This document shows, one piece after another, positions 8,256 to 33,825 of a stretch of DNA of 64,000 nt (position 1 is the first letter of the stretch; each line of letters starts with the position of its first letter). A model generated the notes under the pieces. The model saw only the letters and a list, made by a program, of their open reading frames with translations, searched no databases and had not been told where the DNA came from. This stretch comes from Escherichia coli (lineage in GTDB: Bacteria > Pseudomonadota > Gammaproteobacteria > Enterobacterales > Enterobacteriaceae), in NCBI RefSeq assembly GCF_050920415.1, contig NZ_CP169309.1; one strand, given 5' to 3'. The translations under genes were made by a program, and so were the position numbers.

Positions 8256-8717
<462 letters not shown>

Positions 8718-15187: not shown

Positions 15188-16252
15188 ATGAGTAAAGTGA
15201 AAAGTATCACCCGTGAATCCTGGATCCTGAGCACTTTCCCGGAGTGGGGTAGCTGGCTGAATGAAGAAATTGAACAAGAACAGGTAGCTCCTGGCACATT
15301 CGCGATGTGGTGGCTAGGCTGTACCGGGATCTGGCTGAAATCTGAAGGTGGCACCAACGTTTGCGTCGATTTCTGGTGTGGTACTGGCAAACAAAGTCAC
15401 GGTAACCCACTAATGAAACAGGGTCACCAGATGCAGCGCATGGCTGGCGTGAAAAAACTGCAACCGAACCTGCGTACCACCCCATTTGTTCTTGATCCGT
15501 TTGCGATTCGCCAGATCGACGCGGTACTGGCAACTCACGATCACAACGATCATATCGACGTCAACGTCGCTGCTGCCGTGATGCAGAACTGCGCTGATGA
15601 CGTGCCATTTATCGGGCCGAAAACCTGCGTGGATTTGTGGATTGGCTGGGGTGTGCCGAAAGAACGTTGCATCGTGGTCAAACCGGGCGATGTCGTTAAA
15701 GTGAAAGACATTGAAATTCATGCCCTTGACGCGTTTGACCGTACTGCACTGATCACTTTGCCTGCCGATCAAAAAGCGGCTGGCGTACTGCCAGACGGCA
15801 TGGACGATCGCGCGGTAAACTACCTGTTCAAAACGCCGGGCGGTACCCTGTATCACAGTGGCGATTCCCACTACTCTAACTACTATGCGAAGCACGGTAA
15901 CGAGCATCAGATCGACGTGGCATTAGGTTCATACGGTGAAAACCCACGTGGTATCACCGACAAAATGACCAGTGCTGATATCCTGCGTATGGCAGAAGCG
16001 CTGAATACAAAAGTGGTTATCCCGTTCCACCATGATATCTGGTCAAACTTCCAGGCCGATCCGCAAGAGATCCGCGTACTGTGGGAGATGAAAAAAGATC
16101 GCCTGAAGTATGGCTTCAAGCCGTTTATCTGGCAGGTCGGTGGCAAATTTACCTGGCCGCTGGATAAAGACAACTTCGAGTACCACTATCCACGCGGTTT
16201 TGACGATTGCTTCACCATTGAACCGGATCTGCCGTTCAAGTCGTTCCTGTAA
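15188..16252 (+). CDS. ulaG: L-ascorbate-6-phosphate lactonase UlaG (metallo-beta-lactamase fold)
   Basis: 354-aa product [23 protein letters not shown]... with HDHNDH metal-binding motif; start taken at the ATG at 15188 (AAGG 9 nt upstream) rather than 15182. Confidence 0.94.
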
Positions 16253-16265
16253 TCTGTCGTTTATA

Positions 16266-16297
16266 CCGGATGGCGTGGAGAAGTTCGCGCTATCCGG
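16266..16297. repeat. REP-like hairpin between ulaG and ulaR
   Basis: Imperfect inverted repeat CCGGATGGCG ... CGCTATCCGG resembling a REP palindromic unit. Confidence 0.35.
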
Positions 16298-16359
16298 CGT
16301 AGTATTTCCTGGCTATTTCAAATATCATCTAAAAAAATCAAATTTTATCGGAATAGCTC

Positions 16360-17115
16360 ATGACTGAAGCACAAAGACATCAAATTCTCCTGGAAATGCT
16401 CGCACAATTGGGCTTTGTGACCGTTGAGAAAGTCGTTGAGCGTCTGGGAATTTCGCCTGCTACCGCTCGACGCGATATCAATAAACTTGACGAAAGCGGC
16501 AAACTGAAAAAAGTGCGCAATGGCGCAGAAGCCATTACCCAGCAGCGCCCACGCTGGACGCCGATGAATCTGCATCAGGCGCAGAACCATGATGAAAAAG
16601 TACGTATCGCTAAAGCAGCCTCGCAGCTGGTTAATCCGGGCGAAAGCGTCGTCATCAACTGCGGTTCCACCGCGTTTCTGCTTGGGCGGGAAATGTGTGG
16701 CAAGCCAGTGCAAATCATTACTAATTATCTACCGCTGGCGAATTACCTGATCGATCAGGAGCATGACAGCGTGATTATCATGGGCGGCCAATACAACAAA
16801 AGCCAGTCCATCACCTTAAGTCCACAGGGCAGCGAAAACAGTCTCTATGCCGGGCACTGGATGTTTACCAGCGGCAAAGGACTGACCGCAGAAGGGTTGT
16901 ATAAAACCGATATGCTGACGGCAATGGCAGAGCAGAAGATGTTGAGCGTGGTAGGGAAACTGGTGGTACTGGTTGATAGCAGTAAGATCGGCGAACGTGC
17001 GGGGATGCTCTTTAGTCGTTCAGATCAAATCGATATGCTGATCACCGGCAAAAATGCTAACCCGGAAATCCTGCAACAACTGGAAGCGCAAGGGGTCAGC
17101 ATTCTGCGTGTTTAA
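16360..17115 (+). CDS. ulaR: DeoR-family transcriptional repressor UlaR
   Basis: 251-aa translation [49 protein letters not shown]... with an N-terminal HTH. Confidence 0.95.
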
Positions 17116-17861
17116 AGATGCTGGCGGAAAAATGTCACGGCGGTCTCTAACGCCTCGGGCGTAATGCGGTGACGCACGCCTGGCTGCCATGAACAGGTTA
17201 GCTGTTTATCCCGTCCCACCTCGCTTAAGGCCTGCTGCAAACGTAGTGATTCGTCGGCGGGGACGACATCATCGTCAAGGCCATGCCATAAGAGCAGAGG
17301 TCTGTTTCCCAACTCTTCCAGGTGGTTTGTCGCTTCCCACTCTGCCAGTGGCGCGATAATGTTATTAAATTCGTTCTGCTGTCCTGTCGTTTCAGATATC
17401 AGCGGTGGAAACAGTGAACGGGCGAGTGATGTAAAATAGCCCGATCCCATCATGCTGGCGGTACATTTCACCGTGGGGTAGCGAGCGGTAATTCCCAGAG
17501 CCGTCATCGCGCCCATCGATGCACCACCGATTGCCAGACGGTCATCAAGCAGCCAGTTTTCTTCAGCTACTGCCGCACGTAAAGTAATGAATTCCTGCAT
17601 ACTTTGTAGCAAGATTTGCCAAAATTGATTTAACCGCCGCGCTGCGTCGCCCCTAAAACGGCTACCGTGATCGGGCGCATCCGGCATGATCACCCGCAAA
17701 CCAGCCTGCGCCAGCGCAACGGCAAAATAGCTATACACCAGACTGGACGAAGTAAAGCCGTGATAAAAAATCACGCACGGTAACGGGGTATCTTTTTGCC
17801 CGACAGGATAAGCATGAAGAACGGGAATATCTGCCAGCACGCGCGAGTCTATTTCAATCAT
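17112..17861 (-). CDS. yjfP: alpha/beta-hydrolase esterase YjfP
   Basis: 249-aa translation [39 protein letters not shown]...; 3' end overlaps ulaR by 4 nt, convergent. Confidence 0.92.
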
Positions 17862-18042
17862 CTGTCTCTCCTTTTTGTCTGGTATGACATGAAGAAATCC
17901 TTAGCACAAGTTTCTGCTGGCGGTATTAGTTCATAATGTTGAGATGTGGGTTACGCTTTCATCACGTTTTCATTCGAAAATCGCGTACCAGGTAACAATT
18001 CGGGAACATTCCCCCAAAGTTAAATTAATAAGGCACTACACT

Positions 18043-18372
18043 ATGGTTAGCAGGAAACGTAATAGCGTTATTTACCGGTTTGCCAGTTTATTATTGGTGT
18101 TGATGTTAAGTGCCTGTAGCGCACTGCAAGGTACGCCACAGCCAGCACCGCCAGTAACGGACCATCCGCAAGAGATTCGCCGCGACCAGACGCAAGGGTT
18201 ACAGCGAATAGGTAGCGTAAGCACGATGGTTCGGGGTTCTCCGGATGACGCATTAGCAGAAATCAGAGCGAAAGCTGTCGCTGCAAAAGCTGATTATTAC
18301 GTTGTCGTCATGGTGGACGAAACCATCGTGACAGGACAGTGGTATTCACAAGCCATTTTGTACCGTAAATAA
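18043..18372 (+). CDS. bsmA: biofilm stress and motility lipoprotein BsmA (YjfO), DUF1471 family
   Basis: 109-aa product MVSRKRNSVIYRFASLLLVLMLSACSALQG... with a lipobox (LSAC); start at the ATG at 18043 rather than the ORF-track 17944. Confidence 0.9.
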   Translation: MVSRKRNSVIYRFASLLLVLMLSACSALQGTPQPAPPVTDHPQEIRRDQTQGLQRIGSVSTMVRGSPDDALAEIRAKAVAAKADYYVVVMVDETIVTGQWYSQAILYRK

Positions 18373-18520
18373 ATCAGACAACTTACATAGTCAGCTTTAC
18401 ATTGCTTTGCGTCCCTATGCGTTTACCTGTGCACAATAAATTACCAGCTGGAAGCTCGGGCGTTTATTACCGCGATGGAATGCCCTGCAACATGTGGGGA
18501 AACGAAAAATGGAGCTGACG

Positions 18521-18796
18521 ATGAAACAATTACTTGCCTCACCCTCGCTGCAATTAGTGACTTATCCTGCGAGCACCACGGCACAGTCTGCAGAATTCGC
18601 CAGTGCTGACTGCGTAACGGGCCTGAATGAAATAGGTCAGATCTCGGTTAGCAATATTTCAGGGGATCCGCAGGACGTGGAACGTATCGTGGCGTTAAAG
18701 GCCGATGAACAAGGTGCATCATGGTACCGCATTATTACCATGTACGAAGACCAGCAGCCTGATAACTGGCGCGTACAGGCGATCCTGTATGCGTGA
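18521..18796 (+). CDS. yjfN: DUF1471-family protein YjfN
   Basis: 91-aa product MKQLLASPSLQLVTYPASTTAQSAEFASADCVTG... with GGAG 6 nt upstream of the ATG at 18521. Confidence 0.9.
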   Translation: MKQLLASPSLQLVTYPASTTAQSAEFASADCVTGLNEIGQISVSNISGDPQDVERIVALKADEQGASWYRIITMYEDQQPDNWRVQAILYA

Positions 18797-18821
18797 GTGT
18801 CATCTACAGCAAATGAACAAT

Positions 18822-18852
18822 GCCGGATGCGGCACCTGTGCCTTATCCGGCC
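18822..18852. repeat. REP element
   Basis: GCCGGATGCGGCACCTGTGCCTTATCCGGCC matches the canonical E. coli REP palindromic unit; lies between yjfN and aidB. Confidence 0.75.
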
Positions 18853-18945
18853 AACAGTTCCTGAAATTTCATTGTGTTAGTTGATAACACGTAATGCTGC
18901 TGTTGCCATTATAAGACGCGCTAGCATCACATCTGGCTGACTCGT

Positions 18946-20571
18946 TTATAAACATACTCCCCCCGTCGCCCGCAGCAATAAATCATTCTGGATCTGCTCT
19001 GACAACCGCACGCCGCCGCGCGTATCAAACATCATCTGACACCACGCCTGCGCCATTGGCGGAGAGGCATATTTCAACATTTGCGCGCCGCAACCCAGCA
19101 GGAATAGCTGACGAGTAATCTCTCGCCCCATTTCTTCAGCTGGCTTACGCAGTTGCTGCTGCAAACGACGAACCGCGCGATCAAAATAGCGATCCTGTCC
19201 TTTCACTTCCACAAATGCTTCTGTCAGCAAATCGTATACCCCAGCCTGCTTATTGAGAACGCGCAGCACATCGAGGCACATAATATTGCCAGAACCTTCC
19301 CAGATGCTGTTCACTGGCATTTCCCGATAAAGTCGCGGTAGTTCGCTCTCTTCGCAATAGCCAATACCGCCCAGCACCTCCATCGCTTCAGCCACAAACG
19401 GAATGCCACGTTTGCAGATAACAAATTTCGCCGCAGGCGTAAATAAGCGCGCCCACAGGGCTTCTTTGGCATCGGCACGCCGATCCCACGCTCGCGCAAG
19501 ACGAAACAGCAACGCTGTTTGCCCTTCAAGTTGGAGCGCCATGCGGCTTAAGACATGACGCATCAAAGGCTGTTGGATCAATGGATTACCAAAAACATGG
19601 CGTTGATGGGCATGATAAATCGCCAGCGAAAATGCACGGCGCATCATGGCATGGCTACCCAGGGCGCAATCAAAACGCGTCATCCCACCCATTTTCAGGA
19701 TCAGACGAACTCCTTCCCCTTCCTGCCCCAACAACCAGCCAATGGCATCCTGAAACTCCACTTCGCAGCTGGCGTTAGAGCGATTACCCAGCTTATCTTT
19801 CAGCCGCTCGAGGCGAATCGCGTTGCGTTGCCCGTCAGGCAAAAAGCGCGGCACAAAAAAGCAGGACAAACCGCCCGTAGTCTGCGCCAGCACCAGATGC
19901 GCATCGCTTTGCGGCACCGAGAAAAACCATTTATGCCCCACCAGCCGATAAGAGCCATCGTCCAGACGCTCTGCGCGGGTAGTGTTGCTCATCACATCGG
20001 AACCGCCCTGCTTTTCCGTCATGCCCATGCCAATCAACAAACCGCGTTTTTGCCCACCTGGCAATAAGTGGGAATCGTAGCGATCGCTCAACAGCGGCGT
20101 GGTCCAGTCCTGAAACGGCGCGGGTAACATCTGTAACAGCAATGGCGTGGCGGCAAAGGTCATGGTTATCGGACATAACGACCCTGCCTCAACCTGTGCG
20201 TGCAACATAAAACGCGCCGCGCGCGCCACAAATGCGCCGGAGCGAGCGTCTTCTTCCCAGGCAAGATTGTGCACCCGATTGGTACATAGCGCCTGCATCA
20301 GCAAGTGCCAGGCGGGGTGAAAACGCACATCGTCCAGACGGCGTCCTTGCGCATCGTAGCGCAATAATTCAGGCGGATTCACATTCGCCAGCCGCCCCAG
20401 TTCAAGAGATTCAGCCGTTCCTAACTGCTGACCAATACTGGCGAGAAAATCGCTATCCCAGCCAGCACCTTCACGCGTTACCGCTTCGCAGAGCGCGCCA
20501 TCAGACAGGTATAAGTTGCTGTTATTTAATGGTATAGGTTGATTAAAAACGGTGTGAGTTTGCCAGTGCAC
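18946..20571 (-). CDS. aidB: adaptive-response protein AidB (acyl-CoA dehydrogenase family)
   Basis: 541-aa product starting (GTG) MHWQTHTVFNQPIPLNNSNLYLSDGAL...; GTG at 20571 with GGAGGGAG RBS 7 nt upstream; the ORF-track TTG/ATG extension is rejected. Confidence 0.93.
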   Translation of the reverse strand: MHWQTHTVFNQPIPLNNSNLYLSDGALCEAVTREGAGWDSDFLASIGQQLGTAESLELGRLANVNPPELLRYDAQGRRLDDVRFHPAWHLLMQALCTNRVHNLAWEEDARSGAFVARAARFMLHAQVEAGSLCPITMTFAATPLLLQMLPAPFQDWTTPLLSDRYDSHLLPGGQKRGLLIGMGMTEKQGGSDVMSNTTRAERLDDGSYRLVGHKWFFSVPQSDAHLVLAQTTGGLSCFFVPRFLPDGQRNAIRLERLKDKLGNRSNASCEVEFQDAIGWLLGQEGEGVRLILKMGGMTRFDCALGSHAMMRRAFSLAIYHAHQRHVFGNPLIQQPLMRHVLSRMALQLEGQTALLFRLARAWDRRADAKEALWARLFTPAAKFVICKRGIPFVAEAMEVLGGIGYCEESELPRLYREMPVNSIWEGSGNIMCLDVLRVLNKQAGVYDLLTEAFVEVKGQDRYFDRAVRRLQQQLRKPAEEMGREITRQLFLLGCGAQMLKYASPPMAQAWCQMMFDTRGGVRLSEQIQNDLLLRATGGVCL

Positions 20572-20588
20572 TGTGTCTCCCTCCATCA

Positions 20589-20620
20589 ATGGCAGTCACC
20601 CTTAGTATGGTCACTGCCAT
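20589..20620 (-). promoter_or_regulatory. 12-bp near-perfect inverted repeat in the aidB upstream region
   Basis: ATGGCAGTCACC (20589-20600) and GGTCACTGCCAT (20609-20620) form an 11/12 inverted repeat with an 8-bp spacer, about 20-50 nt upstream of the aidB start. Candidate operator or 5'-UTR hairpin. Confidence 0.4.
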
Positions 20621-20654
20621 GGATTCCTGACAGAAAGAGATTGCTAAAACATTC

Positions 20655-21818
20655 TTACCCAGCAATGTAATGCGGAACGAAACGTGAGGTGTCTTTGGTG
20701 ATCAGCGTGTTATCTTCACGGATTCCCATTCCGCACGCTTCATCATCGACAATCCAGCTACCGATGAGTGTGTAGCTATCGCCAAATCGCGGCAGAGGTT
20801 GAAACGCCTGATAGATCATCGGTTCATCGGCGTAATCACCCTCAGCGTGGTCAACGACGTTATTCTGACCGTCGAAAATGGTGACGTTTCCGCCTTCGCG
20901 TGAGTAGATCGGTTTACGCACATAGCTTTCGCCAGCGGCAATCTGCGGTTTTTCGCCATCAAACCAGGATGCAAGTAGGTTAGGATGACCAGGAAAGAAG
21001 CGCCAAAGCAGCGGCATTAACCCTTTGTTGCTCAAGATACTTTTCCATAACGGCTCCACCCATTGCTCGCGGCGCTTGCGCAGCAGAGGACCGTTATCGT
21101 CACGCATCATCCATTCCAGCGGATACAGCTTAAATGCACGCTGGATGACATTATCATCAAGATCGGTCAGTACACCGCCGACGCCCAAACCGAGATCTTC
21201 AATGTAGATAAACCGTGACTCCTGCCCAGCCTGCTGAGCGCAGTCCTGCAAGTACAGCACAGTACTCCTGTCTTCGTCGGTATCCTGACAACAGCAGAAA
21301 TAAAACGGTTCCCGACTGTAAAGCTCGCTAAAACGCGAAATCAGGCGTTCCTGAATGGCATTGTACTGATCGGCATCACGCGGAATAATGCCGCTACGCC
21401 GCGCATCTTCCAGCCACAGCCACTGGAAATAAGCCGATTCATACAACGAGGTTGGCGTATCGGCGTTGTACTCCAGCAGCTTCACCGGCGCATTGCCACA
21501 CCAGGCAAAATCCATCCGACCATACAGCGAAGGATCGCGTGCGCGCCAGCTTTCAGCGATCACATCCCAGTACAGCGGGGGGATCGCCAGTTGCGTCAGG
21601 ATTTCTTCGTCTTGAACCGCACGATCCACCACCTCAAGGCACATCTGATGCAGTTCCGCAGTTGGTTTTTCGATCTGCTCTTCTATCTGACGCAGAGTAA
21701 AGCGGTAAGCCCGACTCTCATCCCAATAGATTTCATTGTCGATGATATGAAAGTCGAAACCGTTGTCGGCGGCGATCTGGTCCAGATCCCGTCGTACAGG
21801 AACGTTGTGTCTCAGCAT
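20655..21818 (-). CDS. yjfC: glutathionylspermidine-synthase-like ATP-grasp protein YjfC
   Basis: 387-aa translation MLRHNVPVRRDLDQIAADNGFDFHIIDNEIYWDESRAYRF...; last gene of the yjfI-yjfC operon. Confidence 0.92.
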   Translation of the reverse strand: MLRHNVPVRRDLDQIAADNGFDFHIIDNEIYWDESRAYRFTLRQIEEQIEKPTAELHQMCLEVVDRAVQDEEILTQLAIPPLYWDVIAESWRARDPSLYGRMDFAWCGNAPVKLLEYNADTPTSLYESAYFQWLWLEDARRSGIIPRDADQYNAIQERLISRFSELYSREPFYFCCCQDTDEDRSTVLYLQDCAQQAGQESRFIYIEDLGLGVGGVLTDLDDNVIQRAFKLYPLEWMMRDDNGPLLRKRREQWVEPLWKSILSNKGLMPLLWRFFPGHPNLLASWFDGEKPQIAAGESYVRKPIYSREGGNVTIFDGQNNVVDHAEGDYADEPMIYQAFQPLPRFGDSYTLIGSWIVDDEACGMGIREDNTLITKDTSRFVPHYIAG

Positions 21819-21820
21819 GA

Positions 21821-22459
21821 TTAGCCTCCCCAGTGCCCACGGGCGCTGGAAGAACGACCATAGCCGCCGCGAGAAACAGTTGACGCTTTTCTGGTGGTAA
21901 AGCCGCCCGAGGAGTAAGACTCTTTTTTGCCAGAACCGGAGCGCCAGGAGTAATCACCGGAAGTATTGCGCCAGACGGGGCGGGAAGCAAATGAGGATCC
22001 ACCGCTGTTATAAACGAACGGCTCATCGCGATCTTTACGAATAACCCGGCTTAATAAAAATCCAGAAATGACCGGGATCCAACTCTGTTCAACATTGTCG
22101 TAGTAGCAATTTTCGTACTTAGACTGACAATTCTGCTGAGTCATATTCTTCGGAACATCGGCATAAAATGCCGCTTTGGCATTGTTCCAGCCATGAGCAC
22201 AGATATCTGAATTATTACCGTCATCAATACAATCCTGCACTGTCGAGTAAAACGTTCCGTCACCGTCGTTATCGACATCACCACTATCGCCACAACCTTT
22301 CAATACAAAAAAAGCTGCACCGCCCATTAGCGCCAACGTTAAGTATTTTTGTGCGTAGCGATTGCGTCGCGGCTCAAAAGGATTATTAGGTCTTCCAATG
22401 CGACTGATCGCTCCGTGACCAATTTTACTGTTATTTCTTGATTTGCGTTTTCTGGCCAT
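21821..22459 (-). CDS. yjfM: DUF1190-family protein YjfM
   Basis: 212-aa ORF, Gly/Ser-rich C-terminal half; 2-nt gap to yjfC. Confidence 0.9.
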   Translation of the reverse strand: MARKRKSRNNSKIGHGAISRIGRPNNPFEPRRNRYAQKYLTLALMGGAAFFVLKGCGDSGDVDNDGDGTFYSTVQDCIDDGNNSDICAHGWNNAKAAFYADVPKNMTQQNCQSKYENCYYDNVEQSWIPVISGFLLSRVIRKDRDEPFVYNSGGSSFASRPVWRNTSGDYSWRSGSGKKESYSSGGFTTRKASTVSRGGYGRSSSARGHWGG

Positions 22460-22468
22460 GATCGTCCA

Positions 22469-22867
22469 TTACCATGTCATACAAGCTGCGTTAAAAATAC
22501 CGCCAGCCAGCGCGGCGGTTCCCATAAACATTCCTGCTGCGGTATTGTGATTAATAATTTTTTCGCTTAATGCTGGCATATAAAGTCTGACGCCAGCAAA
22601 AACGAGTAACTGAATCACCAGTGCGATCCCGCCCCAGGCAAAATAATCCGGAATACTCACCGCATTGATTGCCGCACTAGATAATGGGATCACGTAACCC
22701 AACAATGTACCACTGAACGCCAGTGCCGCCGCGGTATTATTGTTTTTAATTAACTGCCATTCGTTGTGCGGTGTAATTTTGGAGTAGATAAACAGAAAAA
22801 TAATCACCATAGCCACGCCAATAAAAAAATAGGCGCTAAAGGCAAGAAGTGAATCCAGTATATGCAT
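22469..22867 (-). CDS. yjfL: DUF350-family inner-membrane protein YjfL
   Basis: 132-aa hydrophobic ORF MHILDSLLAFSAYFFIGVAMVIIFLFIYSKITPHNEW... Confidence 0.9.
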   Translation of the reverse strand: MHILDSLLAFSAYFFIGVAMVIIFLFIYSKITPHNEWQLIKNNNTAAALAFSGTLLGYVIPLSSAAINAVSIPDYFAWGGIALVIQLLVFAGVRLYMPALSEKIINHNTAAGMFMGTAALAGGIFNAACMTW

Positions 22868-22884
22868 CGTAAACGTCCTTGTAA

Positions 22885-23544
22885 TTAACCAATAATATGA
22901 AGTGATGTCAGTGGGATATCAACACCCAGTGCGCGCGAAAATAACCACTCCGGCTCGCCGAGATCGTTAAAAGATTCCTCACCATTTAACAGCAAATATT
23001 CACAGGTATCTTCGGTCACCTGCCGTTCATAGCCCATGGTAAAATTATGCACTTCCCATTTGGCGTGGTTTTGATTTTCAACTTTTTCCAGCATATAGAC
23101 GGGTTCGATATTCCCCGGTTCTTCGCTGTTAAAAAATCGCTGCCAGCGTTTTTCCTGCCAGTTTAATGTCATTGCCCCCATCGCTTTGGCGTTGATCGCT
23201 TCGCGCCAGTGGCTCTCTTTGCTGATACCGTAGCTCTCTTCATAGACAAAGAGCTTTATATCATCAATGTCATCAATATCTTCGCCGCCGGTGGTATTGA
23301 TTTGCAGAAATTCATCGCCCGAAGTGTAGTAGCGGAAAATCTGACTACCGCCGCCCAGATCGATGTGGCTGACAGCGGCTACCGTAAATTCTTCACCCGG
23401 CAGCGCAATCAGCAATTCATCTTCCAGCAAACGAAACGCTAACGTGTCGAGCGTAAAGCCGCTATTGAGATGAAGTCCCAGCGGGCCACGTGCGGTTACA
23501 GGTTTATCATCCTTACCAAACAGACGCTTGAAAAAACTTGTCAT
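22885..23544 (-). CDS. yjfK: DUF2491-family protein YjfK
   Basis: 219-aa translation MTSFFKRLFGKDDKPVTARGPLGLHLNSGF...; start ATG overlaps the stop of the upstream channel-like gene (ATGA) with GAGGGAAG RBS. Confidence 0.9.
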   Translation of the reverse strand: MTSFFKRLFGKDDKPVTARGPLGLHLNSGFTLDTLAFRLLEDELLIALPGEEFTVAAVSHIDLGGGSQIFRYYTSGDEFLQINTTGGEDIDDIDDIKLFVYEESYGISKESHWREAINAKAMGAMTLNWQEKRWQRFFNSEEPGNIEPVYMLEKVENQNHAKWEVHNFTMGYERQVTEDTCEYLLLNGEESFNDLGEPEWLFSRALGVDIPLTSLHIIG

Positions 23545-24611
23545 ATGCTTCCCTCAATGTCCTGCCATACCACTTCTTCAGCCAAAATACGGTTATTGCC
23601 AATAAGATGCAGCCACATACCGCCTTTAACTTCCGTTGCAATGACTGGATTCAGTTCCATTCCCCTACCATTTTTACAACTGCTTATTCCCAGGACGGTG
23701 GCATCATGATGAAGTTTCATATAATGCATCAATGCGCCATAACGCATCGAGGTAACCCGTTCAGGAATCGGTAAAACAAACCCCGTATCCCCCAGCATTG
23801 GATTCATAATCGATGCCACTGATTGAGATGAACCGGGATCTTGTATTGAACGGGAAAGTTGTTCTGCTGAAATATTTCGCACTATTTCAATACGTTGACA
23901 ATGAACCTCTAATAAACGAGCGTAGCGTTCATCTTCCAGATAAGCGACGATATGGCATCTTTCAGGAATAAAATCCGCCAGGGATAGTGCGGTCGTGAAC
24001 GTCTGCTCATCTGTTTGCGAAAAGATGATGACACTTTGGCAATTTGCCAGTCCCATGCGGGTATGTTCATGCGGATCATTAAAATTACTAATACGAATGA
24101 AATCGACCCAATTATTTCCAGGCATCGGATGTTGAATATCATCCCGCTCACACAAAAGTACCCGGCCAAATGCTCTTCGGGAATCAAACAACAATAATGA
24201 AATCATCTTTTCAGTCTGATGCCCGCGCCATCCAATGACCAGCATATGGTTGCGCAAATTGCTGTAGTCGCCCATTCCCGTCATTCCTTTCGCCAATATG
24301 TCTTGCACTAATGCAATGACTTTTCCCATTAAAGCGCCAAATAAACCAACACTCACAGGAATCTGCCAGAGCGCTGTGAACAGACGTCCCCCAACCGTTT
24401 GGGGTGTGATATCACCAAACCCCAGCGTTGATCCCACAACCGAGCAGTAATAAATAAAATTACTCAGTTGACCTACCAACGCCTCTTCATGCAACGCAGT
24501 TAACACCAGATAACAAAACAGATACTGTCCTGTAAATAATCCAGTCAATGCCGGCCAGGTAAGCCTGGAAAGGTGACGTCGGCAGGTTTTAATGATCCAG
24601 GAGAAGAACAT
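23541..24611 (-). CDS. putative 2-TM potassium-channel-like protein with a C-terminal RCK/TrkA-N-like domain, 356 aa; not in the K-12 gene order as I recall it
   Basis: Uninterrupted 1071-nt ORF between yjfJ and yjfK. Contains TM1 (residues ~21-45), a pore helix and K+-selectivity-filter-like TLGFGD (residues 62-67, nt 24411-24428), TM2 (~74-100), then a Rossmann-like HMLVIGWRGHQ... segment. Start overlaps the yjfJ stop (TAATG) and stop overlaps the yjfK start (ATGA). Appears AT-richer than its neighbours. Confidence 0.75.
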   Translation of the reverse strand: MFFSWIIKTCRRHLSRLTWPALTGLFTGQYLFCYLVLTALHEEALVGQLSNFIYYCSVVGSTLGFGDITPQTVGGRLFTALWQIPVSVGLFGALMGKVIALVQDILAKGMTGMGDYSNLRNHMLVIGWRGHQTEKMISLLLFDSRRAFGRVLLCERDDIQHPMPGNNWVDFIRISNFNDPHEHTRMGLANCQSVIIFSQTDEQTFTTALSLADFIPERCHIVAYLEDERYARLLEVHCQRIEIVRNISAEQLSRSIQDPGSSQSVASIMNPMLGDTGFVLPIPERVTSMRYGALMHYMKLHHDATVLGISSCKNGRGMELNPVIATEVKGGMWLHLIGNNRILAEEVVWQDIEGSI

Positions 24612-25309
24612 TACTCGCCCTGTTGGCGTTGCAGTCTTGCTAATACATCCTGGGCGCTACTTTTGTTGCTACCGCCAATTCCGGCTTCCGCCAGTTTTTC
24701 ATCAAGATCGCGACCATCTGCCACTTTTTCCAGCTGTGCGGCAGCATCCAGGCGAGCTTGACGTTCGGCCTGACGCGTTTGCAGACGCTTTAAGGATTCT
24801 GCCGCTGTCGAAACGCTGGAAGATGCGCCAACAGTAGAGGTCGTTACGGCCTGTTGTGCACGCTGCATGGCTTCAGTAGCTTTAACGACTTCCATTTGTT
24901 GCTCAAATTGAGCGATACGCTGTGCTGTCGCTGTAACCGCTTTTTCCACACCATCGCGAGAGACCTCCAGATTCGACAACACTTGCTCTTCAGCGGTAAT
25001 GAGATTCTCAAGACGGGCGATTTCTTCAGCAACTTCGTTAATCAACGACGGATTAACATTCTTGCTTAACGCTTCCAGCGCGCGAGCTTCCAGACTGGCT
25101 TTACGCTCACGTAAATCTTTCAGTTTATCGTTGCTCAATTTCACTCTTGCCAGTAGATCGACACGTGATTTACCGGCCTTATCCAGTTCTGCTTTGGCAT
25201 CGCGTATATGCTGTTCAAGCATTCTAACGCCCTGTGCTTCTTCAATGGATTCTTCCGCTTGCGAGATCACCGATTTACCCAGCGTAAATAAAGTTTTTAA
25301 AATTCCCAT
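24611..25309 (-). CDS. yjfJ: PspA/IM30-family protein YjfJ
   Basis: 232-aa coiled-coil-rich translation MGILKTLFTLGKSVISQAEESIEEAQGVRMLEQHIRDAKAELD... characteristic of the PspA/Vipp1 family. Confidence 0.93.
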   Translation of the reverse strand: MGILKTLFTLGKSVISQAEESIEEAQGVRMLEQHIRDAKAELDKAGKSRVDLLARVKLSNDKLKDLRERKASLEARALEALSKNVNPSLINEVAEEIARLENLITAEEQVLSNLEVSRDGVEKAVTATAQRIAQFEQQMEVVKATEAMQRAQQAVTTSTVGASSSVSTAAESLKRLQTRQAERQARLDAAAQLEKVADGRDLDEKLAEAGIGGSNKSSAQDVLARLQRQQGE

Positions 25310-25327
25310 AAATACCTGTCCTTGTAA

Positions 25328-25729
25328 TTAGTGTGAATATTCTTCTGTAATTTCAGCAAGATCCAAAGCGTTATCTACCAGCGTGGTTATTTCCAGCAGG
25401 ATATCTTCAAGAGAAGATTTAAGCGATAACGCCCCGAAAACAATGTAATACTCTTCCTCTTGCACGCTGGAGATCCCTACCGATGACAACGGCATCATCT
25501 TCTGATTTCTTAATAAGAAGGTATTAAATTCATCTGGATTGCTGATACTACTTACCGGACAAATAAAGGTTTCGATAATCATTTGGCGGGAAGTAAAAAG
25601 AATATTGATTTGCAAATCGCCATAATCATTCATTTTAATAATTAATGCGTTTTCATTATTTGTTATATCAATATTTTGTTCAGGTACAGTTTGCAGCGCC
25701 GTCGCCAGCGCCAACGGATTCCATGTCAT
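25328..25729 (-). CDS. yjfI: DUF2170-family protein YjfI
   Basis: 133-aa ORF MTWNPLALATALQTVPEQNIDITNNENALIIK...; first gene of the yjfI-yjfC operon, with an AT-rich promoter region upstream (25730-25808). Confidence 0.9.
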   Translation of the reverse strand: MTWNPLALATALQTVPEQNIDITNNENALIIKMNDYGDLQINILFTSRQMIIETFICPVSSISNPDEFNTFLLRNQKMMPLSSVGISSVQEEEYYIVFGALSLKSSLEDILLEITTLVDNALDLAEITEEYSH

Positions 25730-25808
25730 ATATTATTCCATATAAATTAAGTTTAAATATTAATAAAATGAATATTTGTAGTACGTAATTATCTTACCAG
25801 CTATAGAC

Positions 25809-25840
25809 AAAAAAAAACCATCCAAATATGGATGGTTTTT
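25809..25840 (-). terminator. rho-independent terminator downstream of rlmB (bidirectional form)
   Basis: Stem CCATCCA/TGGATGG (25818-25824 and 25829-25835), with a 9-nt A-run on one side (25809-25817) and TTTTT on the other (25836-25840). Confidence 0.8.
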
Positions 25841-25855
25841 CATAATTCAGAGAAA

Positions 25856-26587
25856 TTAGCTACGCTGGCGTACCGCTTCAAATAAGCAAATGCCTGTCGC
25901 CACAGAAACGTTCAGCGAAGAAACACTTCCTGCCATTGGGATGCTGATCAACTCATCGCAATGTTCACGGGTCAGGCGACGCATGCCTTCACCTTCTGCG
26001 CCCATCACCAGTGCCAGCCGTCCGGTCATTTTGCTCTGATAGAGCGTATGATCCGCCTCTCCTGCCGTACCGACGATCCAAATATTCTCTTCCTGCAACA
26101 TACGCATGGTGCGCGCCAGGTTAGTCACCCGAATCAGCGGAACGCTTTCTGCCGCGCCGCAGGCCACTTTTTTCGCCGTGGCGTTGAGCTGTGCGGAGCG
26201 ATCTTTCGGCACAATCACCGCATGAACGCCAGCGGCGTCCGCGCTGCGCAGGCACGCGCCGAGGTTGTGCGGATCGGTCACACCGTCGAGGATCAGCAGG
26301 AACGGTTGATCGAGCGAAGCGATCAGATCCGGCAGATCGTTTTCCTGATACTGACGTCCTGGCTTCACACGGGCGATAATGCCCTGATGCACGGCACCGT
26401 CGCTTTTCTCGTCGAGATATTGGCGGTTTGCCAGCTGGATAACCACGCCCTGGGACTCAAGGGCGTGAATCAGCGGCAACAGACGTTTATCTTCACGGCC
26501 TTTTAAAATAAAGACTTCCTGAAAACGTTCAGGGGCGCGCTCCAGCAGGGCCTGCACTGCGTGGATGCCGTAAATCATTTCACTCAT
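25856..26587 (-). CDS. rlmB: 23S rRNA (guanosine2251-2'-O)-methyltransferase RlmB
   Basis: 243-aa SpoU/TrmH-family translation [44 protein letters not shown]... Confidence 0.95.
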
Positions 26588-26611
26588 TAATGTACTCGTT
26601 GTTTACGTTTT

Positions 26612-26640
26612 GCCTGATGCGCTACGCTTATCAGGCCTAC
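26612..26640. repeat. REP element (first copy of a BIME-like pair)
   Basis: GCCTGATGCGCTACGCTTATCAGGCCTAC, in the rnr-rlmB intergenic region. Confidence 0.7.
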
Positions 26641-26675
26641 ATGATCCCTGCAATGTATTGAATTTGCGTGATTAT

Positions 26676-26710
26676 GTAGGCCGGATAAGGCGTTCACGCC
26701 GCATCCGGCA
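26676..26710. repeat. REP element (second, inverted copy)
   Basis: GTAGGCCGGATAAGGCGTTCACGCCGCATCCGGCA, inverted relative to the first copy. Confidence 0.7.
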
Positions 26711-26767
26711 TGAACAAAGCGCATTTTGTCAGCAATCTGACCCTCTTCTGTTTGAAGGGGGTAATGA

Positions 26768-29209
26768 TCACTCTGCCACTTTTTTCTTCGCCGCACGCTT
26801 CGCTTTAGTTGCAGCGGCTATTTTCTGCGTTTTCGCCGATGGCTTTTTCGCTTTTCTCGCGTCTTTCTTCGCCGCTTTCGGCTTCGGTTTTTTCTCGCCA
26901 CGGAAGGCGCTGTCTGGCTCAAAGTTTACCTTTTTACCGACCTGGCGACGCTTGCCACCTTTTTTACCTGCATCGCCTTTTTTCGCTTTCTCGCGCGCGG
27001 TTTTACCGACGTTGCGCGGTGCGCGTTCGCTGGAGATCAGGCTAAAGTCGATTTTGCGCTCGTCCATATTAACCGCTTCGACGCGCACTTCCACGCGATC
27101 GCCCAGGCGATAAGTCTGGCCGCTGGATTCACCCATCAGGCGTTGTCCTACCTGGTCAAAGCGATAGTAGTCATTGTCCAGAGAAGAGACATGGACCAGA
27201 CCATCGATGAACAAGTCATCCAGGCGAACAAAGAAGCCAAAACCAGTGACGCTGGAAATCACGCCTTTAAAGACGTTACCTACCTGGTCGAGCATGAAGT
27301 CACACTTCAGCCAGTCAGCCACATCGCGCGTTGCTTCGTCGGCACGACGTTCCGCCATCGAACAGTGCTGACCCAGTTGCAGCATTTCTTCCATCGAATA
27401 ATGGTAGCCGCCGGTTTCAGTGGTGTTGCCCTGATGCCCCTGCTCTTTCGCCAGCAGATACTTAATGGCGCGGTGTAGCGTCAGATCAGGATAACGACGA
27501 ATCGGCGAAGTAAAGTGCGCATAGGACTGCAATGCCAGACCGAAGTGACCGCGGTTTTCCGGATCGTAAATCGCTTGTTTCATCGAGCGCAACAGCATGG
27601 TTTGCAGCATTTCTGCGTCAGGACGGTCAGCAACCGATTCCAGCAGTTCCGCGTAGTCACGCGGTTCCGGCTTGTTACCGCCAGGCAATTCCAGCCCCAG
27701 TTCCGCCAGCACTGAACGGAAAGAGGTTATCGCTTCAGTGCTCGGCTTGTCGTGAATACGGAACAGTGCCGGTTCTTTGGCCTTCTCAACGAAACGCGCC
27801 GCCGAGATATTCGCCAGAATCATGCACTCTTCAATTAACTTGTGTGCGTCGTTACGCTGGGTCTGTTCGATACGCTCAATACGGCGTTCAGCGTTGAAAA
27901 TGAACTTCGCTTCTTCGCTCTCAAACGAGATCCCGCCGCGTTCTTCACGGGCTTTATCCAGCACTTTATAGAGGTTATGCAGCTCTTCGAGGTGCTTAAC
28001 CAGCGGGGAGTACTGCTCGCGCAGATCCTGATCGCCCTGCAGAATATGCCAGACTTTGGTGTAGGTCAGACGCGCGTGAGAGCTCATCACCGCTTCATAG
28101 AATTTGTAGCCCGTCAGGCGACCTTTCGACGAAATGGTCATCTCACACACCATACACAGGCGGTCTACCTGCGGGTTGAGCGAGCACAGGCCGTTAGAGA
28201 GCACTTCCGGCAGCATCGGGATAACCTGCGAAGGGAAGTACACCGACGTGCCACGGTTACGCGCTTCCCTGTCCAGCGGCGTTGGCGGACGCACATAGTA
28301 GCTGACGTCGGCAATCGCGACCCATAAACGCCAGCCGCCGCCGCGTTTTTTCTCGCAGTAAACTGCATCGTCAAAGTCACGGGCGTCTTCGCCATCAATG
28401 GTGACCAGCGGTAAATCGCGCAGATCGACACGGCCAGCTTTCGCCTCTTCCGGCACTTCTTCTTTCAGCCCGGCAACCTGTTGCTCAACAGCCTGCGGCC
28501 AGATGTACGGAATTTCATGGGTACGCAGGGCGATATCAACCGCCATGCCGGTGCCCATATTATCGCCCAGCACTTCGACGATTTTACCCACTGCTTTGGT
28601 ACGGCGAGTCGGGCGTTGGGTCAGTTCAACCACCACCACAAAGCCCATCCGCGCGCCCATGATCTGATCGGGCGGGATTAAGATATCGAAGCTCAAACGA
28701 CTGTCGTCAGGAACCACAAAGCCGACACCCGCTTCGGTAAAGTAGCGACCAACAATCTGGCTGGTTTTTGGCACCAGTACGCGGACAATACGCGCTTCAC
28801 GGCGGCCTTTACGGTCAGCGCCCAGCGGCTGCGCCAGCACCTGATCGCCATGAATGCATGTTTTCATCTGCTCGCTGGAGAGATACAAATCATCTTTACG
28901 TCCTTCAACCCGCAGAAAGCCGTAGCCATCACGGTGGCCAATAACGGTACCTTTCACCAGGTCGAGGCGTTCCGGCAGCGCATAGCACTGACGGCGAGTA
29001 AAGACCAGTTGACCATCGCGCTCCATCGCGCGCAGGCGGCGACGCAGGCCTTCAAGCTGCTCTTCGCCTTCAATGTGCAGTTCTACCGCCAGCTCATCAC
29101 GGCTGGCCGGTTTTTCACGTTTGGTTAAATGTTCGAGGATAAATTCCCGACTAGGGATGGGATTCGCGTATTTTTCAGCTTCGCGTTCCTGGAAAGGATC
29201 TTGTGACAT
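26768..29209 (-). CDS. rnr: ribonuclease R
   Basis: 813-aa product starting [23 protein letters not shown]... at the ATG at 29209 (GGAGG RBS), with a Lys-rich basic C-terminal tail. The ORF-track start at 29251 would overlap nsrR and is rejected. Confidence 0.95.
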
Positions 29210-29247
29210 CTCGGTTCCTCCGTTGTCATCTCTGATGAAGATTTTCG

Positions 29248-29673
29248 TCACTCCACCAGCAATAATTTATAAAGCGGTTGATTCTCTTCAACCAAATCGG
29301 CAAGCGTGTAGTTATCCAGTTCCGTAAGAAAACTTTGCACGGCCTTAGAAAGTGCCTGTTTCAACCGACAGGCAGGTGTAATGTGGCAAAACTCACTGCT
29401 GCAATTCACCAGCGATAAGGGCTCCAGCTCGCGCACCACATCACCAATACGTATCGCACTCGCCGGTTTACCCAGACGAATGCCGCCATTTTTTCCACGA
29501 ACAGCAGTCACGTAGCCGGCACGACTAAGTTGATTGATTATTTTGACCATATGATTACGGGAGACGCCGTAGACGTCAGTCACTTCAGAAATACTGGTCA
29601 TCCGCCCTTCTGGCAATGACGCCATGTAGATCAGCGCACGTAATCCGTAATCAGTGAAACTCGTTAACTGCAC
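29248..29673 (-). CDS. nsrR: nitric-oxide-sensing Rrf2-family repressor NsrR
   Basis: 141-aa translation [60 protein letters not shown]... Confidence 0.95.
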
Positions 29674-29877
29674 ATCAACCTCAAAAGGGAAAGCGGGAAA
29701 AAATACATTTATATTGATGATAAACCAGCCACAAGCTGTGTCGCTAATTTATTTCAGTTCGGGGAAGGAAAAAAGCGAGGATTTAACACTGTGTCGGATA
29801 GCATAATGGCTAACCCGACACAGCAATGTATCACACTGTTAGCCCGGCAGGCAAAATATCTGCCAGGCGTACCAGAA

Positions 29878-31179
<1,302 letters not shown>

Positions 31180-31279
31180 TCAAAATCACCGTTTGCTTAA
31201 AAATGGATTCTACCATCGCTTTTTCAGAGTTACAGCACTTTTTGCACTCAAAAATGACCTCGATCAGTCTGTTTTTTGT

Positions 31280-31477
31280 TCAGCCAATCGTTTTCCTCAA
31301 CATGTAGTAGACCACAACGCCCGCAACCACAAGTCCACCGCCAAAACGACGTAAAATATTATCGGGCAAATTGGTCATCGCAGCGATCATCTTCTTCCAT
31401 GCCTTCGGGTAAAGCATCGGCCCTAAACCTTCCAGCACCAAAACCAGGGCAAGCGCCAGCCAGATTGTCGAATTCAT
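31280..31477 (-). CDS. yjeT: DUF2065-family small membrane protein YjeT
   Basis: 65-aa hydrophobic ORF MNSTIWLALALVLVLEGLGPMLYPKAWKKMIAAM... Confidence 0.88.
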   Translation of the reverse strand: MNSTIWLALALVLVLEGLGPMLYPKAWKKMIAAMTNLPDNILRRFGGGLVVAGVVVYYMLRKTIG

Positions 31478-31558
31478 TCATTATCCTTATAGAAAAAGAA
31501 AACCACCGACATCCCTGAGGATGCGGTGGCTTTATTGACCTGTACCGCAGTCGTTATA

Positions 31559-32563
31559 TTAACGCGTTGCGGAAGTCGGCGTCTTCATGTAGCGGAAGAA
31601 ATCGCTGTCCGGGCTCATGACCATCACGTCCTGATTGCCGGAGAAGCTGTTCTCATAAGCACGCAGGCTACGGATGAATGCGTAGAAGTCCGGATCTTTA
31701 CTGAATGCATCAGCAAACAGTTTAGCTGCTTCTGCATCGCCTTCACCACGCATGATGCGGCCCTGACGCTCAGCTTCTGCCAACGTTCTGGTCACTTCAT
31801 AGTCGGCAGTCGCGCGCAGTTTTTCCGCTTCTTCCTGACCTTGTGAACGGTGACGACGTGCTACCGCTTCACGCTCGGCGCGCATACGGTTGTAGATCGC
31901 TTCAGACACCTCGGTCGGCAGGTTGATCTGCTTGATACGCACATCGACAACTTCAATACCCAGCGCCGCCATACTGTTCGGGTTGATGACCGGTACTTTA
32001 CCCTTCGTCTCAGCCGTTACGCGCTCTGCCGCTTCGGCAATGGCGTTATCTGCCGCCGGGGTAGTAACTTCATCTTCTGTACCCGCAGAACCGGAGTTCA
32101 GCGCGTCACGTACTTCCAGGGTCAGACGACCACGAGAATCGGTGACGATGTCTTTCACATCCAGACGACCAATTTCAGAACGCAGACGGTCAGAGAACTT
32201 ACGTTTCAACAGCACTTCCGCTTGCGAAATGTCGCCACCGCCCGTTGCCAGGTAGTAACGGCTAAAATCACTGATGCGCCATTTGATGTAAGAGTCGACG
32301 ATCAGGTCTTTCTTCTCTTTAGTCACAAAGCGGTCGGCCTGGTTGTCCATGGTCTGAATACGTGCATCAAGCATTTTCACCGTTTCAATGAACGGTATCT
32401 TGAAATGCAGACCCGGCTCATAAACCAGAGGTTTGTTGTCATCGTCACGCAGTACCTTACCAAAACGCAGCGTAATACCGCGCTCACCTTCTTTGACGAC
32501 AAAGACAGACATGTAAAGCACTACCAGCACGATGATGATAATCGCGATAACTGACTTACGCAT
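31559..32563 (-). CDS. hflC: FtsH protease modulator HflC
   Basis: 334-aa SPFH-domain protein MRKSVIAIIIIVLVVLYMSVFVVKEGERGITLRFGKVLRDD... Confidence 0.96.
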   Translation of the reverse strand: MRKSVIAIIIIVLVVLYMSVFVVKEGERGITLRFGKVLRDDDNKPLVYEPGLHFKIPFIETVKMLDARIQTMDNQADRFVTKEKKDLIVDSYIKWRISDFSRYYLATGGGDISQAEVLLKRKFSDRLRSEIGRLDVKDIVTDSRGRLTLEVRDALNSGSAGTEDEVTTPAADNAIAEAAERVTAETKGKVPVINPNSMAALGIEVVDVRIKQINLPTEVSEAIYNRMRAEREAVARRHRSQGQEEAEKLRATADYEVTRTLAEAERQGRIMRGEGDAEAAKLFADAFSKDPDFYAFIRSLRAYENSFSGNQDVMVMSPDSDFFRYMKTPTSATR

Positions 32564-32565
32564 CG

Positions 32566-33825
32566 TTATTCCCCCTGACGCTGGTAGTCGTTACGCTGCG
32601 CGTTAGCGCGGCGTTGGTCCATAATATCGCCCTGACTGGTGGACGACGTGTTGCTTGCACCACTGGTTGTGGAGGAAGAGGCTGGCGGCAGACGCAGCAG
32701 ATTGCTGGCACCGTTATCGCTCTTCGCCGCAGGGGCATTGCCACCTTTCAGCATCTGGTCTAACGGCAGAACCATCAGGTTGCCACCTTTATCGTTAACC
32801 AGCACTTTGCGGGTGTTGCCCAACACTTTTTCCATCGTCTCGATATACAGACGCTCGCGGGTAATTTCCGGCGCAGCTTTATATTCCGGCAGAAGTTTAG
32901 CAAAGCGTGCCACTTCACCCTGGGCTTCCAGGATAGTCTGAGCCTTGTACGCACGCGCCTCTTCGAGGATACGTTGCGCCTGACCGTTCGCACGCGGCTG
33001 AACTTCGTTGGTATACGCTTCTGCTTCACGAATGTATTGCTGTTCGTTTTCACGCGCGGCAATCGCATCGTCAAACGCCGCTTTTACTTCTTCCGGCGGA
33101 CGAGCTGCCTGGAAGTTGACGTCCAGCAGAGTGATACCCATGTCATACGGACGAATCGTCTCTTCCAGTTCGCGCTGAGTATCGCTACGAATCACGGTAC
33201 GACCTTCCGTCAGAATGCGGTCCATGGTGTATTTACCGATAACCCCACGCAGGGCGCTGTCGGTAGCCTGACGCAGGCTGTCATCCGGACTGGTCACGCT
33301 ATACAGATATTTTTCCGGATTGGTGACGCGGTACTGTACGTTCATCTCAACGCGCACCACGTTTTCGTCCGACGTCAGCATCACACCGGAAGCAGCCAGT
33401 TCACGCACGGCTTCCACGTTCACCGGTTTGACTTCGTCGATAAACGTCGGTTTCCAGTTCAGACCCGGCTCAACCAGATGGCTGAATTTACCAAAGCGTG
33501 TTACCACGCCGCGTTCGGCTTCTTTAATGGTGTAGAAACCACTGGCCGCCCAAATAATGACAATCGCTGCCGCTGCGATGGTAACGACACGACCGCCAAG
33601 CTGCGGGCGCGGGCCTTGCGATGAATTACCACCGCCAGATCCGGTGCCTTTACCGCCGCCCAGACCACCGAGCTTTTTGCTCAGTTTGCGGAAGATATCA
33701 TCTAAATCAGGTGGCCCTTGATCGCGACCGCCTTTGTTTCCATTTCCCTCAGAGTTGCCGCCAGGTTTGCTGCTTCCCCACGGGTCGCGGTCTTGTCCGT
33801 TATTACCGGGCTGATTCCACGCCAT
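32566..33825 (-). CDS. hflK: FtsH protease modulator HflK
   Basis: 419-aa SPFH-domain protein with a Gly-rich N-terminus; 2-nt gap to hflC. Confidence 0.96.
   Translation of the reverse strand: MAWNQPGNNGQDRDPWGSSKPGGNSEGNGNKGGRDQGPPDLDDIFRKLSKKLGGLGGGKGTGSGGGNSSQGPRPQLGGRVVTIAAAAIVIIWAASGFYTIKEAERGVVTRFGKFSHLVEPGLNWKPTFIDEVKPVNVEAVRELAASGVMLTSDENVVRVEMNVQYRVTNPEKYLYSVTSPDDSLRQATDSALRGVIGKYTMDRILTEGRTVIRSDTQRELEETIRPYDMGITLLDVNFQAARPPEEVKAAFDDAIAARENEQQYIREAEAYTNEVQPRANGQAQRILEEARAYKAQTILEAQGEVARFAKLLPEYKAAPEITRERLYIETMEKVLGNTRKVLVNDKGGNLMVLPLDQMLKGGNAPAAKSDNGASNLLRLPPASSSTTSGASNTSSTSQGDIMDQRRANAQRNDYQRQGE

Follow-up and report, generated by a model that had tools for sequence, protein, structure and literature searches.

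Escherichia coli K-12 MG1655 has the genes yjfJ (b4182) and yjfK (b4183) next to each other, with a 50-bp spacer and no channel gene between them. In the stretch of DNA analysed here (64,000 nucleotides of contig NZ_CP169309.1 from the E. coli assembly GCF_050920415.1, hereafter the window), the space between these two genes is filled by an open reading frame (ORF) for a protein of 356 amino acids. A preliminary description, made from the letters of the window, had given the K-12 arrangement correctly and interpreted the ORF as an extra gene for a small K+ channel, embedded in an operon for a PspA-like protein, a combination that it could not match to a described system. The locus thus raises the questions of what this protein is, whether the gene was gained by this lineage or lost by K-12, and what the protein could contribute to the operon. 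We conclude with good confidence that the protein is a K+ channel of the MthK type, and that its gene belongs to the ancestral, vertically inherited content of the yjf operon and was lost by mainstream E. coli.

Results

Position and junctions of the channel gene

The ORF list and the nucleotide sequence agree with the preliminary description that the gene, which begins with ATG, overlaps both of its neighbours (Table 1). In the TAATG upstream, one base is common to the stop codon TAA of yjfJ and the start codon of the channel gene; in the ATGA downstream, the start codon of yjfK overlaps the stop codon TGA of the channel gene. The TAATG junction is kept in 9 of 11 orthologous loci, and the ATGA overlap recurs in most of them, including a distant operon on a metagenomic contig (L030). 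Apart from these overlapping codons the junctions are featureless, with neither mobile-element features nor repeats. A promoter and terminator scan of positions 20400-26000 gave counts at the level of shuffled sequence and no notable internal promoter or terminator in or beside the channel gene. The overlapping stop and start codons support the view that the channel gene is embedded in the yjf operon and would be translationally coupled to yjfJ and yjfK.

Table 1. Features of the yjf operon and of the channel gene, in positions of the window; residue numbers refer to the channel protein
Feature	Coordinates	Strand	Basis
yjfI (DUF2170, CesT/Tir-like), first gene of the operon	25328..25729	-	ORF list, RefSeq, Pfam, PMC11237479
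yjfJ (PspA/IM30 family), 232 aa	24611..25309	-	ORF list, RefSeq, Pfam
TAATG junction, yjfJ stop over channel start	24609..24613	-	window sequence
Channel gene, 356 aa plus stop	23541..24611	-	ORF list, identical to RefSeq WP_000466339.1
TM1 outer helix, residues 19-39	24495..24557	-	AF2 model, pLDDT 95.8; aligned to MthK TM1
Pore helix, residues 49-61	24429..24467	-	AF2 model; Ion_trans_2 over residues 42-103
Selectivity filter TLGFGD, residues 62-67	24411..24428	-	family alignment, n=77
TM2 inner helix and linker to RCK, residues 73-111	24279..24395	-	AF2 model
RCK Rossmann-type lobe, residues 122-257	23841..24248	-	profile alignment, AF2 model, Foldseek
RCK crossover turn with family-wide QDPGSS, residues 257-269	23805..23843	-	aligned to MthK SIDDGYEA
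RCK C-terminal peripheral subdomain, residues 276-356	23544..23786	-	MthK-aligned to residue 319; beta-rich in model
ATGA junction, channel stop over yjfK start	23541..23544	-	window sequence
yjfK (DUF2491), 219 aa	22885..23544	-	ORF list, RefSeq, Pfam
yjfL (DUF350 membrane protein)	22469..22867	-	ORF list, RefSeq, Pfam
yjfM (DUF1190 lipoprotein)	21821..22459	-	ORF list, RefSeq
yjfC (glutathionylspermidine-synthase-like ATP-grasp)	20655..21818	-	ORF list, RefSeq

The earlier remark that the gene looks AT-richer than its neighbours is only partly right. With a GC content of 44.7%, it is AT-richer than the window (51.4% GC), but within its own operon the GC content ranges from 37.6 to 49.2% (yjfI 37.6, yjfL 43.6, yjfK 47.0, yjfJ 49.2), so that the composition of the channel gene does not set it apart from the genes beside it.

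Based on the ORFs of the window, RefSeq annotation, Pfam searches with the Salmonella orthologues and a published operon table (PMC11237479), the genes follow each other on one strand in the order DUF2170 (a CesT-like chaperone), PspA, K+ channel, DUF2491, DUF350, DUF1190 and glutathionylspermidine-synthase-like ATP-grasp. In K-12, yjfIJKL behave as one transcriptional unit, the 'YjfJ iModulon', which is switched on in heat-evolved E. coli (PMC12492005). According to a 2024 paper on the Pseudomonas BacA/YjfI homologue, the six-gene operon lacks experimental data (PMC10948618). PADLOC defence models gave no match for the channel protein, YjfI, YjfK or YjfL; their matches to YjfJ stayed below threshold and were coiled-coil noise. 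The RefSeq name of YjfC in K-12 is peptide--spermidine ligase, which reportedly goes back to a study by Pederick et al. from 2023.

Architecture of the channel protein

Pfam identified an Ion_trans_2 domain over residues 42-103 (E 1.7e-10), as the preliminary description had expected. The TrkA_N domain that it had also expected was matched only marginally (E 0.039); the assignment of the RCK domain thus rests on profile and structure comparisons, which support it. The protein has the succession of a P-loop K+ channel, namely a transmembrane (TM) helix, a pore helix, the motif T-x-G-[YF]-G-D and a second TM helix, with the filter TLGFGD precisely where it had been reported. All 77 aligned family members have a filter of the form T/S-x-G-Y/F-G-D, without any variation at G64, G66 and D67.

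A search of 1.84 billion representative proteins yielded a channel family of 179 representatives at E < 1e-30, nearly all of them 340-360 amino acids long and matching from end to end. The best match in the PDB for a profile of 22 enterobacterial orthologues was MthK (E 4e-7), and positions 1-334 of 353 in a profile of 77 family sequences matched MthK residues 1-319 of 336 (E 1.6e-41). A structural model predicted by AF2 from the alignment of 77 sequences (mean pLDDT 95.8, pTM 0.86) replaced an initial model from 22 close sequences, which had a mediocre pLDDT of 73.6. It consists of TM1, the pore helix, an extended filter, a long inner helix, a beta-alpha Rossmann lobe, a crossover turn and a beta-rich C terminus, in this order. 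In a Foldseek comparison of this model with the PDB, the top matches were all full-length MthK (6u68_A: TM 0.67/0.73, rmsd 4.2 A over 337 columns). Against 2aef_B, which comprises just the RCK domain of MthK, the TMt was 0.76 and the rmsd 3.1 A. A single C-terminal RCK domain follows directly after the inner helix of a 2-TM pore, and there is no voltage sensor. The earlier reading of the protein as a 2-TM/1-pore K+ channel with an RCK domain is thereby confirmed.

MthK is the Ca2+-gated channel of Methanothermobacter thermautotrophicus (PDB 1LNQ, 3RBZ, 6U68). It is 336 amino acids long, compared to 356 for the channel protein, and both comprise TM1, a pore helix, a TxGxGD filter, TM2 and a single RCK with a C-terminal subdomain. 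Both have a GW motif where the Rossmann lobe begins (residues 127-128 here, within the segment HMLVIGWRGHQ at residues 122-132), and MthK likewise lacks a GxGxxG motif. In addition, the lobe of the channel protein holds D201 and, where MthK has E210/E212, the acidic cluster E226-D227-E228. By contrast, sequence identity with MthK is only 17-19%, the filter of the channel protein has F in place of Y (GFG), F197 stands in the position of MthK D184, and the crossover turn carries the family-specific QDPGSS, of which D258 is present in 73 of 77 and G260 in 74 of 77 family sequences. Moreover, MthK is archaeal, whereas the channel protein is bacterial and its subfamily is embedded in a PspA-type operon.

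Other channels are less similar. E. coli Kch (PRK10537) shares the K+ filter and a C-terminal RCK domain and is matched weakly (E 1.2e-8), but it has six TM helices rather than two, and the proteins are not orthologues. Identity with Kch is also rejected by the NCBIfam model NF007828, which scores 34.4 bits against a curated cut-off of 425. BK/Slo1 and GsuK, with profile matches of E 1e-21 to 1e-24, employ the same principle of a pore with an RCK gating ring, but contain two RCK domains per chain, and in BK also voltage-sensor helices, compared to the one RCK domain of the channel protein. Some database records use the name 'two-pore-domain' (K2P) channel. This can be ruled out based on the presence of one filter motif and one Ion_trans_2 match, and the name is a misnomer carried over from the name of the Pfam family.

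Distribution within Escherichia coli

Among 5,426 complete E. coli genomes, 18 carry the channel gene. In each of the 18 it lies between yjfJ and yjfK, with an intact ORF that is 99.3-100% identical. The channel-less arrangement of K-12 is found in ATCC 98082 and in approximately 5,325 of 5,343 matching complete genomes. With a 24-kb query around the locus, the 18 carriers match in one piece at 98.5-100% identity, whereas the others reach at most 97.3% and typically 96.4%, indicating that the carriers constitute one divergent lineage and not a set of sporadic recipients. Elsewhere in the window, identity to typical E. coli is approximately 96.5% over a stretch of 12 kb. The window, which matches the chromosome of E. 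coli strain MFDS1022581 at 100% identity, thus belongs to a divergent Escherichia lineage labelled E. coli. Accession names in the protein cluster ('EsCd1...', Escherichia sp. KS167_9B) suggest that this lineage may be cryptic clade I.

In the spacer of K-12, TTTTTTTGCCAGCCTCGCTAAAAGGCTGGCAACTATTTTAAGGATAAAAT, there is a hairpin, along with the Shine-Dalgarno sequence of yjfK. We detected no remnant of the channel gene in these 50 bp (local alignment score 17, compared to a mean of 16.9 for shuffled sequences), so that the course of a deletion in K-12 cannot be reconstructed. Given that most E. coli lack the channel gene, the other genes of the operon can do without it.

Conservation in other genera

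The proteins of the operon in the window were compared by tblastn with loci from species-representative genomes. The scan of these genomes returned 20 loci, which included spurious short matches in Nitrosomonas and missed Salmonella; synteny in Salmonella was taken from an exact look-up. The order rlmB-yjfI-yjfJ-channel-yjfK-yjfL-yjfM-yjfC was found in two Citrobacter species, in C. sedlakii, in an Enterobacter, in two Atlantibacter, in Buttiauxella, in 'Serratia microhaemolytica' and in a second Escherichia lineage. The same arrangement, channel gene included, is present in Salmonella enterica. The metagenomic contig L030 shares the operon order, although its channel protein is only 33-34% identical, and at another locus (L031) a distant channel homologue directly follows a PspA gene. 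Alteromonas addita has the same gene order (Table S3 of PMC11237479). The same gene in the same position across genera indicates that the state of K-12 is derived, by deletion, and not ancestral. The designation 'extra' can therefore not be upheld, given the operons of Salmonella, Citrobacter, Enterobacter, Atlantibacter, Buttiauxella and the metagenomic contig.

Full-length orthologues share 56-87% identity with the channel protein. Identity to Salmonella is 82% for the channel protein, compared to 65% for YjfI, 70% for YjfM, 79% for YjfK and 88% for YjfJ. The dN/dS ratio relative to the closest Escherichia orthologue is 0.083. Taken together with the full-length orthologues, this identifies the ORF as a real gene, under purifying selection. 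From these sequence comparisons, the absence of the channel gene from K-12 is best understood as a loss in mainstream E. coli of an old, vertically inherited gene.

The position between yjfJ and yjfK recurs in the enterobacterial loci listed above and in all 18 carriers, but it does not extend to the whole family: of seven distant homologues examined, five stand by themselves among unrelated genes. The family is thus not tied to the PspA operon. It consists of general gammaproteobacterial MthK-like channels, one branch of which became fixed in the yjf operon. An apparent fusion of channel and YjfK that could have marked a deletion intermediate (P0033) proved to be an artefact of a frameshift-ridden assembly (L032).

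Candidate gating sites and internal start

Where MthK has the Ca2+ ligand D184, the channel protein has F197; every enteric member has F or Y there, and D occurs in only 23 of 77 family sequences. The counterpart of MthK E212 is E226. All members of the enteric group keep this residue, and the sequence in which it lies, EDERY, resembles EAERY of MthK; the position of MthK E210 corresponds to either Y224 or E226, depending on the alignment. The triad D184/E210/E212 is thus incomplete in the channel protein at the position of D184. Because this ligand is replaced by F or Y in the enteric members, gating by Ca2+ is not to be assumed. As judged from the alignment, the RCK site does not appear to be a straightforward MthK-style Ca2+ site, even though the equivalent of E212 and the EDE cluster are kept. 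The GxGxxG dinucleotide-binding motif typical of KTN/TrkA_N domains is absent from the RCK domain, with GWRGHQ (127-132) in its place, which renders a nucleotide ligand improbable; the gating ligand is probably not a nucleotide. It is tempting to speculate that the ligand could be a cation or a polyamine-related molecule rather than Ca2+. We note that a changed ligand would be in keeping with the replacement of D184 in the enteric subfamily, whose genes are embedded in the operon.

In MthK, a soluble RCK subunit that starts at an internal Met107 completes an octameric gating ring. Codon 113 of the channel gene is ATG, with an AAAGGA motif 9 nt upstream, near the position of MthK Met107. In 11 of 11 close orthologues this codon is ATG or TTG (TTG in two). 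The candidate Shine-Dalgarno codon is GGA in six of eight lineages, a synonymous conservation no stronger than that of other invariant glycines, and Met113 is not conserved across the wider channel family. A putative soluble-only RCK homologue (P0125) was dismissed as a gene call truncated at the edge of a contig.

Discussion

The system in the window is not new. RefSeq had already named WP_000466339.1 a 'potassium channel family protein', and Ravi et al. 2024 (mSystems, PMC11237479) described a 'third group' of CesT/Tir-PspA operons with a polyamine ATP-grasp ligase, for example, that of Alteromonas addita (AMJ95269.1). The gene order of this group equals that of the window, which does not differ in kind and constitutes its Escherichia instance, whereas the E. 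coli example given in the same publication is the six-gene version without the channel gene. The suggestion that a PspA operon with a channel gene had not been described is thus not supported: the gene is already annotated and has already been described computationally. A literature search with Salmonella locus tags, and with clade I combined with the channel, found nothing functional.

Two alternatives to an ancestral channel gene lost by mainstream E. coli concern the gene itself. A recent horizontal insertion between yjfJ and yjfK of this lineage, with K-12 representing the ancestral state, would account for the small number of carriers among complete E. coli genomes and for a GC content below the average of the window. 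Yet this GC content is like that of the operon, the junctions bear no sign of a mobile element or repeat, divergence of the channel gene is in line with that of the neighbouring genes, and over 24 kb the carriers group as a single divergent lineage. Given in addition the same position and order in at least six other enterobacterial genera, in the distant 33-34% identical operon and in Alteromonas, an insertion is largely refuted, and we consider it extremely improbable. It is also very improbable that the channel gene is a functionless, decaying relic heading for the same loss as in mainstream E. coli. Its absence from more than 99% of sequenced E. coli carries no obvious penalty, and some Enterobacter contain truncated copies (P0031, 195 amino acids). 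Against decay argue the intact, nearly identical ORFs of all 18 carriers, the low dN/dS ratio, the invariance of the filter and RCK motifs, and the preservation of the overlapping start and stop codons.

Accepting an ancestral and functional channel gene, the protein could operate exactly as MthK does, that is, be activated by Ca2+ or another divalent cation and have its ring completed by a soluble RCK subunit from an internal start. Homology with MthK from end to end, the alignment of E226 with E212 within similar motifs, and the AAAGGA sequence ahead of ATG113, with TTG as an alternative codon in two orthologues, are consistent with this. On the other side stand the replacement of D184 by F197 and the small proportion of the family with D at this position, a GGA codon no better conserved than those of other invariant glycines, the lack of conservation of Met113 in the wider family and the contig-edge origin of the soluble-only homologue. 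On balance, we regard gating exactly as in MthK as unlikely.

By homology with MthK, each subunit would contribute two TM helices flanking a pore helix and the canonical K+ filter TLGFGD, followed by a cytoplasmic RCK domain, and four subunits would assemble into a tetramer with the RCK domains as a cytoplasmic ring. Binding of an intracellular ligand would then cause the RCK ring to open the gate at the inner helices, and K+ would be conducted. Speculatively, during a response of the PspA-like/polyamine module to membrane stress, the channel would carry K+ through the inner membrane. A more specific, rather doubtful proposal is that the RCK ring is gated by spermidine, by the peptidyl-spermidine product of YjfC or through contact with the YjfJ polymer or YjfK. 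The channel would then take an active part in the PspA-like module and convert membrane damage into a controlled K+ flux, which would reset turgor or the membrane potential during repair of the bilayer by YjfJ.

In conclusion, the practical value of these observations is modest, and they leave knowledge of K+ channels or Psp systems unchanged. They do bear on the choice of organism. K-12 has a reduced operon without the K+ channel, whereas Salmonella, Citrobacter and divergent Escherichia keep the seven-gene form, and these complete versions of the operon are preferable for dissecting the PspA-like system. The presence/absence polymorphism within 'E. coli' provides a ready-made natural comparison. 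If the channel is a working part of the module, studies of yjfIJKLMC in K-12 would be missing one of its components.

Sequence signature and candidate internal start of the channel

The QDPGSS turn in the RCK domain of the 356-aa MthK-type K+ channel is kept throughout the 77-member family of aligned channel homologues, with D258 present in 73 and G260 in 74 of the 77 sequences. At the corresponding position MthK, the archaeal Ca2+-gated K+ channel, instead has SIDDGYEA. QDPGSS is a family-specific signature.

A Shine-Dalgarno-like AAAGGA is positioned 9 nt upstream of the in-frame ATG113 of the channel gene, close to where MthK has the internal start (Met107) that yields its soluble RCK subunit. 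ATG113 is replaced by TTG in two orthologues, and a conservation test on the putative Shine-Dalgarno/ATG113 internal start was not significant.

Two database proteins with the look of variants were rejected as artefacts. P0033, apparently a channel-YjfK fusion, comes from an assembly riddled with frameshifts (L032, GCA_030710735.1), and P0125, apparently an RCK-only protein, is a gene call truncated by a contig edge (L033).

Features of the channel gene and its surroundings (window coordinates unless indicated)
Feature	Position	Strand	Location or context
yjfJ-yjfK spacer, 50 bp	L002 (comparison locus) 8661-8710; K-12 NC_000913.3 4411252-4411301		mainstream E. coli
QDPGSS turn	23826-23843 (channel residues 257-262)		between two RCK helices
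AAAGGA/ATG113, putative internal start	24273-24293 (codons 107-113)	minus	channel gene
yjfI	25328-25729		yjf operon
Terminator-like hairpin	25812-25841	minus	between rlmB and yjfI
rnr (RNase R)	26768-29251		
Alignable segment with the greatest divergence near the locus	18852-19050		yjfN-aidB intergenic

Organization of the yjf operon

In place of the channel gene, mainstream E. coli has a spacer containing a hairpin (GCCAGCCT...AGGCTGGC), after which come a T-rich run and the Shine-Dalgarno sequence of yjfK. These 50 bp show no sequence similarity to that gene. The spacer might serve as an attenuator or an RNA-stability element.

At the upstream end of the operon, the strong terminator-like hairpin (a 13-bp stem, then a T run) makes it probable that the yjf operon is transcribed from a promoter of its own, located between 25730 and 25811. 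YjfI matched the C-terminal part of the NCBIfam BacA model, below the cut-off (E 3e-27). BacA is a Pseudomonas aeruginosa biofilm regulator encoded beside the PspA-like BacB in the bac cluster (PMC10948618). For rnr, the mechanical ORF comprises 827 aa from a GTG and the RefSeq gene 2,442 nt (813 aa), a mismatch of start-codon choice only.

Divergence and ancestry

Compared with a K-12-like genome, identity per 200 bp is about 90-97% across 15250-29000 (ulaR/yjfP through rnr), noticeably more diverged than 29000-33300 (97-100%), which suggests that the yjf region either has a mosaic ancestry or evolves faster. The yjfN-aidB intergenic stretch is 83% identical to the same genome, with 35 gapped columns.

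In a genome comparison, 12000-52000 of the window was only ~96.4-96.5% identical to typical E. coli, and 98.5-100% identical to the 18 complete genomes labelled E. coli that carry the channel gene. Accession names in the protein cluster, which include EsCd1... and Escherichia sp. KS167_9B, hint that this lineage is affiliated with cryptic clade I.
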